From contig CM001633.1 in NCBI GenBank assembly GCA_000309945.1, forward strand, positions 5,049,174-5,073,173: a stretch of 24,000 nt of DNA, read 5' to 3'. The position numbers and the translations under genes were made by a program. The notes under the pieces are model-generated. The model was not told the DNA's origin, searched no databases, and saw only the letters and a program-made list of their open reading frames with translations. Position 1 is the stretch's first letter, and every line of letters starts with the position of its first letter. This DNA comes from Leptolyngbyaceae cyanobacterium JSC-12. Its GTDB lineage: Bacteria > Cyanobacteriota > Cyanobacteriia > Leptolyngbyales > Leptolyngbyaceae. Shown piece by piece: positions 16,346 to 22,645 of this stretch.

Positions 16346-16720
16346 ATGTTTCACTCCTTCTATCTCCTCACGTTTTACCCACTGCAGACTTATTTAACAC
16401 CAATTTGTTTTTTTACTGCATGGATTGTTTTTCTAATGCTCTTTGCTAATCTTTGGGCATTGAGCCAGGATACAGTCACCTATGCTAGCCGAATGTACCA
16501 AATTCCCTGTTCTAATTGTCGTTTTTTCACTGAGAACTATCAACTTAAATGCACAATCCATCCAATTGAAGCATTAACAGAAGCAGCTATTGATTGTCCA
16601 GATTATCAATCAAATGATTACTCCTTTAGCCTTGATCCAAACCCGATGTGCTCAACTTCCAATATGGAAAAAGCAATTACAGAAAATTCCAGAGCGGAAC
16701 CCATGAGCACTAAAGTCTAA
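16346..16720 (+). CDS. Hypothetical membrane-anchored Cys-rich protein (124 aa)
   Basis: An N-terminal hydrophobic helix (ICFFTAWIVFLMLFANLWAL) is followed by IPCSNCRFFTENYQLKCTIHPIEALTEAAIDCPDY (CxxC...C...C). It is on the same strand as, and nested between, psbC2 and psbB2. No strong SD is present. Confidence 0.55.
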   Translation: MFHSFYLLTFYPLQTYLTPICFFTAWIVFLMLFANLWALSQDTVTYASRMYQIPCSNCRFFTENYQLKCTIHPIEALTEAAIDCPDYQSNDYSFSLDPNPMCSTSNMEKAITENSRAEPMSTKV

Positions 16721-16799: not shown

Positions 16800-18416
16800 A
16801 TGGGACTCCCTTGGTATCGTGTTCATACTGTTGTCATCAATGATCCTGGACGTTTACTAGCCGTTCACCTGATGCATAATGCCCTCTGTGCAGGTTTTGC
16901 TGGATCAATGTTGTTATTTGAACTGGCATTATTTGATCCCAGTGATCCTGTACTCAACCCAATGTGGCGGCAGGGCTGTTTTCTGATGCCTTTCGTGGCG
17001 CGCCTGGGGGTAATCAATTCCTGGCAGGGTTGGAGCATTACTGGCGAAACAGTTACAGACCCAGGTTTTTGGACTTTCGAAACTGTCGCAATTGCTCACA
17101 TCATCTTTTCAGGACTGGAATTTTTGGCAGCAGTTTGGCACTGGAATTATTGGAATCTTTCCACTTTCTACGATGCAAAAACAAATGAACCCGTGCTTGA
17201 CCTACCCAAAATTTTCGGCATTCATTTATTCCTGGCAGGACTCGTCTGTTTTGGATTTGGAGCCTTTCACCTGACGGGGGTATTTGGTCCGGGAATGTGG
17301 GTTTCCGATCCTTATGGTCTCACCGGACACATGCAACCTGTTGCTCCGGAGTGGGGACCTGCTGGCTTTAATCCCTACAATCCTGGTGGAGTCGTTGCCC
17401 ATCACATTGCGGCTGGCATTGTAGGGATTATTGGCGGACTGTTCCATATCTATGTGCGCCCTTCTGAATATCTCTATAAAGGCTTACGCATGGGCAACAT
17501 CGAATCAGTACTGGCAAGTGCACTGGCAACATTCTTTTTTGCTGGGTTTGTGGCAACTGGTACGATGTGGTATGGCACTGCTACAACACCCATTGAACTT
17601 TGGGGTCCAACCCGATTCCAATGGGATGACAACTACTTCCACAACGAAATTGATCGCCGTGTTCAGGCAGGTCTTGCAGAAGGAAAAAATCTGTCTGAAG
17701 CCTGGTCAGCCATTCCAGAGAAACTTCTTTTTTACGATTATGTCGGTAATAGTCCGGCAAAAGGTGGTTTATTCAGAGTTGGACGCATGGTAGACGGTGA
17801 TGGTGTTGCTCGAGGCTGGTTAGGGCATCCCGTTTTCAAAGATCGAGAAGGACGAGAACTAACCGTGCAGCGAATGCCCAACTTCTTTGAAAATTTCCCC
17901 GTTATTTTAACGGACAAAGATGGTATTGTGCGGGCTGATATTCCTTTCCGACGGTCAGAGGCAAAATATAGCTTGGAGCAAAAGGGTGTCACAGTTAGCT
18001 TTTTTGGCGGCAAACTGGACGGACAAACTTTCACAGAACCTGCACAGGTGAAGCAATATGCTCGCCAAGCGCAATTAGGGGAACCGTTTGAATTTGATCG
18101 CACTGTTCATAACTCTGATGGCGTTTTCCGCACTAGCAACCGAGGCTTCTTTGCCTTCTTCCACGCATGCTTTGCTCTTGTCTGGTTCTTTGGCCATCTC
18201 TGGCATGGCACTCGCACTCTCTTCCGAGATGTATTTGCAGGCATCGATCCAGAACTAGACGAAGAACAAGTTGAGTGGGGCATCTATCAAAAAGTGGGCG
18301 ACAAAACCACTCGCAAACGACCAGTTTTGCAGCCAGTTGCACCAATTCAAGCTACAACATCCGCAAATTTGGGAGCGAATCCCAATCCTTCCTTACAGGA
18401 AAGCCTTGAGATGTAG
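16800..18416 (+). CDS. psbB2: Photosystem II CP47, far-red paralog (PsbB2) with extended C-terminus
   Basis: [41 protein letters not shown]... is collinear with CP47 up to ...[16 protein letters not shown] (aa 506). About 32 further residues follow ([32 protein letters not shown]). Confidence 0.95.
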
Positions 18417-18480: not shown

Positions 18481-18849
18481 ATGGAAATCAAATATCCACC
18501 TAAAAAGGTTGCTCCAATTCAATACACCTTGCGGCAACTTAATTCCGAAGCAGGAAAGGTAACTCGTGGATGGGGAACAACTCCCTTCATGGCATTACTG
18601 ATGCTACTATTCTTCCTGTTTCTGCTAATTATTTTGCAAATCTATAATGCATCAATATTATTGCAAGGTGTTGATATTGACTGGTCAGTACTGAATAACT
18701 ATCCAACTCCAGTTGAAACTCACTCATACGGTGAAGGGGAGTTTTCAGCTACAGGTTTTAGTGTATTTCTAGGTCTGTTAGCATTCAGTCTAGGATGTGT
18801 TGGCTTTATTCTATATGGTGCAACAACGTATCCAAAAGACCAGGAATAA
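18481..18849 (+). CDS. psbH2: Photosystem II PsbH, far-red paralog (PsbH2) with a 52-aa C-terminal extension containing a second hydrophobic helix
   Basis: aa 1-70 match PsbH ([52 protein letters not shown]). aa 71-122 are extra, including [23 protein letters not shown]. The ATG at 18481 has a GGAGGA SD (18471-18476). The TTG at 18469 in the ORF track is rejected. Confidence 0.8.
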
Positions 18850-19678: not shown

Positions 19679-20380
19679 CTAGTCAGCATAGTCTGGGTTC
19701 AGGCGATAGTTCCCTCCTGGCAAAGTCTGAATCACATTCTCACAACCTAAATCTAAAAGTTTGCGACGGAGCCGTCGAATTTGTGCAGCCACCACGTTAC
19801 TAGTTCGCTCAGCTTTTACTTCATAGAGGTAGTTTAAGATCTGTCCGTGGCTGGCTGCTTTATACGGATGTTTCATAAAGTATTCCAGTAACTGAAACTC
19901 CTTTTTACTAAGCTGAACGCTACGTTGTCCACATTTAACCGATTGCCAAAAAAGTGTTTGACTGTCACAGTCTAATGTTAAATTACCAAATCGTAGCTGT
20001 AGAGATTGAAATTGGGGAAAGCGACGCCGCAGTGCCCGCAATCGTGCCAATAGTTCCTCTCGTCGAAATGGTTTCATCAAATAATCATCAGCACCAGCAT
20101 CCAAACTTAAAACTCCATCTTCCCAGCGATCAGGCTTAACTAATATTAGCACCAGCAAAGAACTCTGTTGATTGCGTAAGCGTTTGCATAATTCTAATCC
20201 TGTTAGACCTGGCAACTCCCAATTCAAGATTGACAGTATATACTGATTATATTGACTATCTAAATAATTCCAGGCTGAAACTCCATCTTGTACCCAATCA
20301 ACAATATATTTCTCCTGAAGCAGATCTCGATAAATAGATATTCCCAAATCTAGCTCATTTTCAGCAAACAAAATTTTCAT
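19679..20380 (-). CDS. OmpR/PhoB-family winged-helix response regulator with a degenerate (non-phosphorylatable-looking) receiver domain
   Basis: 233 aa. The receiver fold is kept (ILFAENE..., ...DDYLMKPF with the conserved Lys). The phospho-acceptor position reads LNWELPG where the family has LDxxLPG: Asn53, codon at 20222-20224. The acidic pair reads E-N (Asn8), and the Thr/Ser position is hydrophobic (LILVKPD). The C-terminus is a trans_reg_C wHTH (LSKKEFQLLEYFMKHP...AAQIRRLRRKL...YRL). Confidence 0.85.
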   Translation of the reverse strand: MKILFAENELDLGISIYRDLLQEKYIVDWVQDGVSAWNYLDSQYNQYILSILNWELPGLTGLELCKRLRNQQSSLLVLILVKPDRWEDGVLSLDAGADDYLMKPFRREELLARLRALRRRFPQFQSLQLRFGNLTLDCDSQTLFWQSVKCGQRSVQLSKKEFQLLEYFMKHPYKAASHGQILNYLYEVKAERTSNVVAAQIRRLRRKLLDLGCENVIQTLPGGNYRLNPDYAD

Positions 20381-20845: not shown

Positions 20846-22645
20846 TTAGAATGTAAAGGTAGTCCGAACTACACCAACAAACTGAGTATTATTCGCGCTA
20901 TTCCCTTCAGGGTTGAATAATACGAATACTCCGGGCGTAATAGCAATGTTGTCATTCACCCGGTAGCGGTAGAACGCTTCAAGATGGAAGGGTGGATCTT
21001 CATCCAGACGACGGCGCACGTTCGGGTTGGGTAAGCCACGATTGGGACCAGTGGCGAAGCGAGCACGAAAATCGTTATCCACTACGCGAGGTTGCATCCC
21101 AAACAATAGTCCCAATAGATTACCTTTGCGTCCTAAGTCGGGGAAGCCCAAGAAACCAGCCCAGTTAACGATTCGTGCTTCTTCGCTGGTACGTCGATTG
21201 TTGGCAAAGCTGTAGCCGTACCAACCTCCTATCGTAATGGCAGGAGTTAAGCGCCATTGAACTTGGGCAGAAAGGTTATCAGTAGCTGTTGCCTCGCCAC
21301 CGAAAGGATTGGCGGCGTAGCCTGTGCCAGTACTGCCGAAGAGGTTTGGAGCACCTTGATTGAAAACGGTTGAACTGCCTGGGAAATAGGAGCGAACGTA
21401 GGTGAAGCCAATATCAAAGGTGCGAGAAGGGCGAAAGACAATTTGCCCAACGGCAGCATAGTTGCCGTTGAACAGCCCATTCTTCTCTCCCGGATCGTTT
21501 GCATTCACATCAGAGAAATAACCACCCTGCAAGCTGAATTGGGGGCTAAAACGGTAGTCAAACGAAATTCCTGGAGAACTCGTAAATCCCTGGTTGTTAG
21601 CGCGGAAGATTGGATTAAACCGTCCAAAGCGAGAAACAGATCCAAAGCCACTGCTTTCAAATGCGCTGAGGGGTTCGATGAGAGAACTGTAAATTCGACT
21701 TTGAACTGCGTCAACCTGGATGCGGAGATTTTGTCCGAGAGGAAACCGATAATAAAGGTGGTCAACGTTGACGGCATTTGATTCGTTGCCATCGAAGCTT
21801 AGTCGGGTTTCATTAGTACCTGTAAAGTTGCCGCTGAAAGGGGTAACATTGCGTGCTTGCAGCCGCACTCGAAGCCGATCTCTTCCTGTAAAACTGGAAT
21901 CAAGCGCAAGACGAACGCGATTACCGAAGATAGTTTCAGTACGATCGTCTTCTAGGTTGCCTCGGTTGTTGGCGTTGACCCCGCCTAGAAAGCTGTCATT
22001 GCCAGTAAAAATGGCACGATCGCCAAAGGTATCAGCAACCGCAAAAATGACTTCACCGCTTAGTTTCGTCGTTGTGGAGAATTGCTGCTTTTCTAGGGTT
22101 GCTGTGCGAACCTCCAGCGCTTCAACCCGACCTCGCAATGCTGAGAGTTCAGCCGCAAACTCCTCCTGTAAGCGCTTTACGACCTCCAAATCTTCTTTTC
22201 TAACAAAATCAGCCGTGGCAGCCGCGATCAATTCCTGAATTTTGTCTAAGCAAGCATTGAGTCCAGCGGCGAACTCGTAGCGAGTGAGGGCACGATTTCC
22301 CCGGTAAGTTTTGTCGGGATAGCCCACGATGCAACCATAGCGTTCAACCAACGACTGTAAGGCTTGAAATGCCCAATCTGTTGGGTTGACATCCGAGAAT
22401 TGAGAAACTGAGGTTACTTGATTCATTGCTCCATTTTTGCCCTCAGCGCTGTAGCTGCTAACTTGTTGTAAAGTTGCACTACTTTCTGAAACACTGGCTT
22501 GCTCCAACGTCAGAGCTTTAGGTTTAGCTGCTGCGTTAAGACCCATTTGCTTGGGTGCTGAATCTGCGATCGCGGATTCAGAAAGTACCAGCACCATCAT
22601 CAAAAATGCTGGAGCACTCCAGCCAAGATCTCTCAGTAAACGCAT
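20846..22645 (-). CDS. Outer-membrane porin with N-terminal SLH domain, coiled coil and OprB-type beta-barrel (cyanobacterial SomA/Slr1841-like)
   Basis: It has a signal peptide (…LVLSESAIA) and an SLH motif (FSDVNPTDWAFQALQSLVERYGCIVGYPDKTYRGNRALTRYEFAAGLNACL). A heptad-rich segment follows (EDLEVVKRLQEEFAAELSALRGRVEALE). The remainder is Gly/Asn/aromatic-rich with alternating beta-strand pattern and ends ...VVRTTFTF with a C-terminal Phe. Confidence 0.85.
   Translation of the reverse strand: MRLLRDLGWSAPAFLMMVLVLSESAIADSAPKQMGLNAAAKPKALTLEQASVSESSATLQQVSSYSAEGKNGAMNQVTSVSQFSDVNPTDWAFQALQSLVERYGCIVGYPDKTYRGNRALTRYEFAAGLNACLDKIQELIAAATADFVRKEDLEVVKRLQEEFAAELSALRGRVEALEVRTATLEKQQFSTTTKLSGEVIFAVADTFGDRAIFTGNDSFLGGVNANNRGNLEDDRTETIFGNRVRLALDSSFTGRDRLRVRLQARNVTPFSGNFTGTNETRLSFDGNESNAVNVDHLYYRFPLGQNLRIQVDAVQSRIYSSLIEPLSAFESSGFGSVSRFGRFNPIFRANNQGFTSSPGISFDYRFSPQFSLQGGYFSDVNANDPGEKNGLFNGNYAAVGQIVFRPSRTFDIGFTYVRSYFPGSSTVFNQGAPNLFGSTGTGYAANPFGGEATATDNLSAQVQWRLTPAITIGGWYGYSFANNRRTSEEARIVNWAGFLGFPDLGRKGNLLGLLFGMQPRVVDNDFRARFATGPNRGLPNPNVRRRLDEDPPFHLEAFYRYRVNDNIAITPGVFVLFNPEGNSANNTQFVGVVRTTFTF

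Follow-up and report, generated by a model that had tools for sequence, protein, structure and literature searches.

Two-helix forms of the far-red photosystem II (PSII) subunit PsbH have been described previously. Among 31 FRL-PsbH sequences surveyed by Gisriel, Cardona, Bryant and Brudvig in 2022, six were found to possess a second, C-terminal transmembrane helix, with examples from Aphanocapsa GSE, Leptolyngbya, Elainella and further strains, and these sequences were basal in the FRL-PsbH tree (PMC9325196). The second helix was reported to be homologous to a 48-residue ORF that, in Halomicronema, Nodosilinea and Chroococcidiopsis, lies downstream of psbH2, and gene fission was suggested by the authors (PMC9325196). 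More recently, the cryo-EM structure of Chroococcidiopsis thermalis FR-PSII at 2.17 Å revealed PsbH2' as a single helix beside PsbB2 and PsbH2, close to the other monomer without contacting it (Nat Commun 2026; PMC13396731). A chlorophyll at the PsbB2/PsbH2/PsbH2' interface, B617, was assigned as chlorophyll f, hydrogen-bonded by PsbB2 Glu107, absorbing at 749 nm and emitting at ~751 nm, with one cryo-EM map and comparative spectroscopy as the basis of the assignment (PMC13396731). PsbH2' was proposed to shield the weakly bound B617 and perhaps to aid docking of far-red allophycocyanin, and fused PsbH2:PsbH2' isoforms were noted in Leptolyngbyales and Elainellales (PMC13396731).

The window analyzed here, a 24,000-nucleotide stretch of the genome of Leptolyngbyaceae cyanobacterium JSC-12, adds one further member of this known fused form, and no new concept. 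A preliminary description of this DNA had drawn attention to a C-terminal extension of PsbH2, implicitly as a novelty; the two-helix feature is real but already known, having been reported in 2022 (PMC9325196) and named the fused PsbH2:PsbH2' isoform in 2026 (PMC13396731). The second-helix reading of the extension is supported by the present analysis and a reading as PsbN is rejected. Very probably, the gene unites two far-red PSII subunits in frame as a natural fusion, with PsbH2 at aa 1-68, PsbH2' at aa 82-122 and a short lumenal linker between them; its parts are as follows.

18481 to 18849, forward strand: the fused psbH2::psbH2' gene, 122 aa, with its ATG at 18481 and the stop codon included in the range
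18481 to 18684, forward strand: the PsbH2 module, aa 1-68, comprising the N-terminal arm and helix 1 (~aa 34-60) and ending at Trp68
18685 to 18723, forward strand: the predicted lumenal linker, aa 69-81, ~13 residues, variable, acidic and lacking an in-frame start codon
18724 to 18846, forward strand: the PsbH2' module, aa 82-122, comprising a SYGEGEF motif, helix 2 (~aa 88-113) and an 11-residue tail predicted to be cytoplasmic

The first module is readily recognized as PsbH. The Pfam PsbH model (PF00737) matches aa 16-61 with E = 1.7e-22, its 79.3 bits exceeding the cut-off of 24.6, and the NCBIfam PsbH equivalog, for which the cut-off is 65, matches aa 16-68 with E = 4.8e-30 and 102.9 bits. 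Together with this domain above the curated cut-off, the protein possesses the far-red N-terminal extension and its A-P-x-Q-Y motif; in the N-terminal arm this far-red-specific motif reads APIQY and includes Ala11, and A11, P12, Q14 and Y15 are invariant in an alignment of 23 full-length relatives. The top PDB match of the window protein is PsbH2 of C. thermalis, 9T5T_H (aa 3-68; E = 1.4e-24), and the module can be aligned position by position to 9T5T_H 4-69, which terminates in the Trp equivalent to Trp68.

Beyond this domain, PsbH2 continues in frame for 52 residues, exactly as had been described: codon 71 (Leu) opens at nucleotide 18691, and the stretch 18691-18846 is translated as LNNYP...KDQE, aa 71-122. 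The extension as originally printed was correct in sequence, the sole and trivial slip being that it began two residues early, at aa 69-70 (SV), and hence ran to 54 letters. The extension is a real coding sequence, and an assembly artefact or fortuitous read-through is excluded. Three independent assemblies, namely two JGI metagenome contigs and one NCBI MAG, carry an identical copy of the gene. The extension is conserved in 26 protein clusters (90% identity; 120-149 aa), which cover 97-100% of the query at 57-82% identity, and so is not unique to the window; the next tier of the whole-protein search consists of 67-74-residue PsbH proteins covering only the first 55-59% of the query. Among 21 aligned extension modules (20 fused and one split), nine residues are invariant, and in the 23 full-length relatives F88, T91, G98, L99, C106, F109, I110, Y112, G113, Y117 and P118 do not vary. 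When helix 2 and the tail were compared with nine relatives, non-synonymous proportions were 0.14-0.27 and synonymous proportions 0.64-1.07; these pN and pS proportions are given because synonymous sites are saturated, leaving formal dN/dS mostly undefined. Helix 2 and the tail are thus under purifying selection. Finally, no in-frame ATG, GTG or TTG was found in the ORF past codon 61, meaning that helix 2 is not translatable separately.

These observations bear directly on whether the fusion could itself be spurious, that is, a frameshift or lost stop codon merging psbH2 and psbH2', or an untranslated read-through tail. A single indel could in principle join the two genes, which in many other cyanobacteria are separate and lie only 36-75 nt apart. 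Against this stand the recurrence of the same ORF in the three assemblies, an in-frame fusion with similar linker lengths in the 26 clusters as well as in eight named or MAG genomes, the lack of a start codon in the linker and downstream of it, the selective constraint on helix 2, and the independent reports of the fused state (PMC9325196, PMC13396731), so that a spurious origin retains a negligible probability.

The extension contains a hydrophobic stretch of 22 residues at nt 18754-18819 (aa 92-113), where it had been placed originally. Using the usual Kyte-Doolittle threshold for a membrane helix (a 19-residue mean of 1.6), two blocks of the protein exceed the limit, namely aa 30-66 (peak 3.0) and aa 88-116 (peak 2.35). 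AlphaFold2 likewise predicts a first helix at 34-63 and a second at 85-116 (pLDDT ~70-80 in the helices, ~76-78 in the second); overall confidence is low (mean pLDDT 62, pTM 0.31), such that the model supports the helices and is uninformative on their packing. The single helix expected of PsbH2' (about 22-26 residues) is therefore found by both hydropathy and modeling. With regard to orientation, K+R averages 4.9 in the N-terminal region, which fits the cytoplasmic side, and the interhelix loop, aa 57-91, averages 0.9 K+R and 4.0 D+E. The basic N-terminal arm and the acidic, nearly K/R-free loop together suggest a hairpin running from cytoplasm to lumen and back to cytoplasm. The N-terminal arm would rest against PsbB2 at its cytoplasmic face, helix 1 would span to the lumen, where the acidic linker, devoid of Lys and Arg, would remain, and helix 2 would span back to let the conserved YG..TYP.D tail finish on the cytoplasmic side. 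Hydropathy, AlphaFold2, charge distribution and homology to PsbH2' agree on the suggestion, made at the outset, of a second helix returning to the cytoplasmic side. The N-terminus of split PsbH2' is, we infer, also lumenal, because the fusion demands this orientation.

The identity of the second module is evident from profile comparisons. A profile of 21 extension modules searched against all PDB chains returned one match at E <= 10, namely chain G of 9T5T (E = 1.1e-14), which is the 48-residue PsbH2' of C. thermalis FR-PSII. A single-sequence search gave the same significant likeness, with aa 81-121 of the window protein matching 9T5T_G 7-47 (E = 2.6e-7). By BLASTP, the extension is 51% identical over 41 residues (E = 3e-16) to XM38_010780 of Halomicronema, and when it is aligned with five split PsbH2' sequences, 19-23 of 40-41 positions are identical. 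Residue 8 of C. thermalis PsbH2' corresponds to Ser82 of the window protein; since 9T5T_H ends at the Trp, aa 69-81 stand in for both the free PsbH2 C-terminus and residues 1-7 of PsbH2'. The position of the module is also that expected of PsbH2', being in frame after Trp68 of PsbH2 and inside the far-red light photoacclimation (FaRLiP) cluster.

A different identity had been put forward in the preliminary description, in which the extension was a PsbN-like module, derived from an ancient fusion of PsbH with its opposite-strand neighbor. In favor of the proposal, psbN adjoins psbH1 on the opposite strand in two of the loci gathered here (L015 and L026), and both PsbN and the extension are single helices with a T-x-x...Y motif. 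Real PsbN sequences, encoded beside psbH1 in the Chondrus plastid and a cyanobacterial MAG, served as references, however, and no relationship emerged. Neither the extension nor the whole protein matched Pfam PsbN (PF02468) at E <= 1, BLASTP of the extension against real PsbN gave no alignment at E <= 100, and hhalign of the extension profile against PsbN gave a probability of 8.8%, confined to 22 gapped hydrophobic-helix columns. The invariant C-terminal PsbN motif DPF(E/D)xHE, seen in L015 and L026 within a common ...E-L-x-DPFExHE, is missing from the extension, which ends in YG..TYP.D. PsbN is an assembly factor and not a subunit of the mature complex. An exhaustive phmmer search of the extension against 1.84 billion representatives returned four matches, none of them PsbN: a split form, a fused form, a fragment and P0121. 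The last of these, the top match (E = 2.1e-9), is a predicted 308-aa repetitive eukaryotic protein with eight tandem ECGFVIEMCTTYPEDE copies and was discarded as a repeat-driven false positive. When the 52-aa extension alone was the query, a word-index homology search gave no candidates. Given that the extension has a clear homologue in PsbH2', a PsbN origin is highly improbable.

The fused gene resides in the FaRLiP cluster, between psbB2 and psaF2. The order of the cluster and the features around the fused gene are as follows.

Cluster start, in order: psbA-type fragment, psaA2, psaB2, psaL2
Cluster middle, in order: apc gene, 385-aa psbA-type gene, three apc genes, apcE2, another apc gene
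Cluster end, in order: psbD3, psbC2, ORF, psbB2, psbH2::psbH2', psaF2, psaJ2
16346 to 16720, forward strand: the ORF between psbC2 and psbB2, 124 aa (94 aa from a later ATG, as in L002 and L004)
16800 to 18416, forward strand: psbB2, far-red CP47, 538 aa (Pfam PSII, E = 1.9e-261)
19679 to 20380, reverse strand: a response regulator (Response_reg and Trans_reg_C) after psaJ2, past the end of the FaRLiP cluster
20846 to 22645, reverse strand: an SLH-OprB porin beyond the response regulator

The 385-aa psbA-type gene is presumably chlF. In Leptolyngbya JSC-1 and in loci L012 and L014, psbH2 is followed by large ORFs of ~660-680 aa starting M(K/R)VLL(V/I)EDDE; gene order after psbH2 therefore varies among lineages with the fused form.

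Split arrangements are seen in other FaRLiP clusters. For example, Halomicronema hongdechloris (L001) possesses a 73-residue psbH2, a 75 nt gap and then the 48-codon ORF XM38_010780, and a metagenome contig (L021) encodes psbB2, a 72-aa psbH2, a 48-aa ORF and psbA3. In both, the split psbH2' lies directly downstream of psbH2, so the order of the genes equals the order of the modules in the fusion. Still other clusters, such as L018, have a short psbH2 with no psbH2' at all. A helix-2 DNA pattern searched in species-representative genomes found the fused form in all eight cyanobacterial matches (Leptolyngbya sp. JSC-1, Leptothermofonsia sp. ETS-13, Altericista sp. CCNU0014, and Leptolyngbyaceae and Synechococcales MAGs), and a second pattern searched in metagenomes found three split and two fused loci; both patterns are too strict for the Chroococcidiopsis-type PsbH2' (C..LI.YA), and the counts are accordingly no census. 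Two further matches of the first pattern, in Terracidiphilus and Planctomycetota, were set aside as chance. Kovacikia minuta provides a further fused form.

The SYGEGEF motif that precedes helix 2 (18724 to 18744, forward strand, aa 82-88) has a split counterpart, AYGEGQF, in C. thermalis, L021 and L023. Within the fused proteins, SYGEGEF is confined to the subclade of the window protein (P0001-P0011), the more distant P0012-P0026 and Leptolyngbya JSC-1 being without it. This distribution might bear on whether the split genes descend from a fused ancestor of this type.

Conservation along the protein is uneven. Mean column identity in the 23 full-length relatives is 0.77-0.82 in the PsbH part, 0.72 in helix 2 and 0.71 in the C-terminal tail, and falls to 0.42 in the linker (aa 71-87). 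A linker that is the least conserved part of the protein, rich in Pro, Thr and Ser, and facing the lumen, where processing proteases act, could conceivably be cut, leaving PsbH2 and PsbH2' as separate chains in the mature complex, with the fusion ensuring only co-translation and 1:1 stoichiometry; split species demonstrate that the two helices work as separate chains. Yet no conserved cleavage motif was seen in the linker, the data do not require cleavage and the literature consulted offered no proteomic sign of it, and this scenario is quite unlikely. The fused PsbH2-PsbH2' chain, we infer, stays uncleaved.

With the fusion taken as intact, its probable role can be considered alongside PsbB2. 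Residues 91-130 of the window's PsbB2 align without gaps with 9T5T_B 91-130, with SGLEFLAA common to both, and Glu107 and His114, which belong to the chlorophyll f B617 site, are identical to those of 9T5T_B. Residue 107 is Ser in Synechococcus 7335, and Leu in Calothrix and in white-light PsbB. The co-occurrence expected of the site (Glu, Gln or Ser allowed at PsbB2 107) is found in the window as Glu107 in PsbB2 and Ala11 in PsbH2, the latter answering to the Ala expected in place of Thr5. As far as sequence can tell, all features of site B617 are present in the window, and the best reading places helix 2 in the PsbH2' position, where it would stabilize chlorophyll f at B617. By homology with C. 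thermalis PsbH2', helix 2 would pack on PsbH2 and PsbB2 near the dimer interface, covering an otherwise membrane-exposed chlorophyll at site B617. Acting with PsbB2 Glu107 and the Thr-to-Ala change of PsbH2, it may stabilize the B617 chlorophyll f, the longest-wavelength pigment (~749 nm absorption), and it may also aid docking of the far-red allophycocyanin antenna. The covalent tether would secure 1:1 incorporation of both helices. The location of helix 2 in this organism's complex is argued by analogy, since the known structure is that of a split homologue of ~50% identity, and chlorophyll f would by the same analogy be expected to occupy B617 here. The original expectation of an extra helix near CP47/PsbH in FRL-PSII finds its counterpart in the cryo-EM of the homologous PsbH2' (9T5T chain G), beside PsbB2 and PsbH2. 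Another helix was considered as a candidate and rejected: it lies near PsbJ, opposite the dimer interface, and its strain is also stated to lack psbH2' (PMC13396731).

PsbB2 was also correctly said to carry an unusual C-terminal tail, and it extends ~37 residues past the end of the Pfam PSII model. The tail (18315 to 18413, forward strand) comprises ~33 residues after KVGDKTTR and ends in SLQESLEM. All fused-psbH2 loci in which the 3' end of psbB2 was found have a tail of 13-45 residues that contains RK(Q/P)PxLQP and frequently terminates in SLE(T/M). In the genomes with split psbH2' (L001 and L021-L023), PsbB2 terminates 4-7 residues past TTR/TSR. The tail receives no mention in the two PSII papers (PMC9325196, PMC13396731). 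A tail of 19 residues is nevertheless present in L018, which has a short psbH2 and no psbH2', and the link between tail and fusion is consequently not specific; it is probably phylogenetic rather than functional.

Another companion of the fused gene is the ORF at 16346-16720, which has no Pfam or NCBIfam match and encodes an N-terminal hydrophobic helix and the Cys motif CSNCRFF...C...CPDY. Five fused-psbH2 loci (L009, which is Leptolyngbya JSC-1, L012, L014, L024 and L008) have at this position an ORF that shares its N-terminal signature, and this type of ORF is absent from the Halomicronema locus (L001). The 2014 FaRLiP cluster figure (PMC4390838) shows a "conserved hypothetical (Hyp)" gene to which this ORF may correspond. 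It is tempting to suggest that, in fused lineages, the tether, the PsbB2 tail and the small Cys-motif membrane ORF form a lineage-specific docking surface on the cytoplasmic side for the far-red allophycocyanin core around B617, with the fused state ancestral and the split state arising by fission; this suggestion is speculative and unlikely to hold, as the co-occurrence of the three features is confounded by phylogeny and L018 has the tail without psbH2'.

PsbH2' is the sole PSII subunit known only in the far-red form of the enzyme, and it helps to hold the longest-wavelength chlorophyll f; as such, it bears on the red limit of oxygenic photosynthesis and on far-red crop engineering. The fused form adds the constraint that the two helices must be neighbors and oppositely oriented, and it offers a route to expressing the helix pair at a fixed 1:1 stoichiometry; earlier publications already make these points.

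When set against known systems, the window protein resembles canonical PsbH/PsbH1 (PF00737) in its standard one-helix PsbH domain at aa 16-68, and differs in its far-red N-terminal extension, its Thr-to-Ala change and its entire second helix; canonical PsbH terminates 2-6 residues past the conserved Trp, whereas the window protein runs on. PsbN, like PsbH2', is a single-helix peptide (about 43-48 residues for both) genomically linked to psbH, but it has no detectable sequence relationship to the extension, has other motifs and is encoded on the opposite strand. By comparison, split PsbH2' (9T5T chain G of C. thermalis PCC 7203; XM38_010780 of Halomicronema hongdechloris) is a homologous module of ~50% identity that shares with the extension the motif (A/S)YGEG.F..T...(hydrophobic helix)..C..(F/L)I.Y(G/A)..TYP.D. 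Like the window module, it is encoded directly after PsbH2 in a FaRLiP cluster and accompanied by PsbB2 Glu107 and the PsbH2 Ala. Unlike it, the window module lacks a separate start codon and is covalently tied to PsbH2 by the ~13-residue linker; further differences from C. thermalis are Gly for Ala at position 113 and F-I for L-I at positions 109-110. Finally, the two-helix FRL-PsbH proteins of PMC9325196 have the same architecture, and the window protein belongs to this group with no essential difference, the group now numbering 26 clusters at 90% identity relative to the 6 sequences of 2022.
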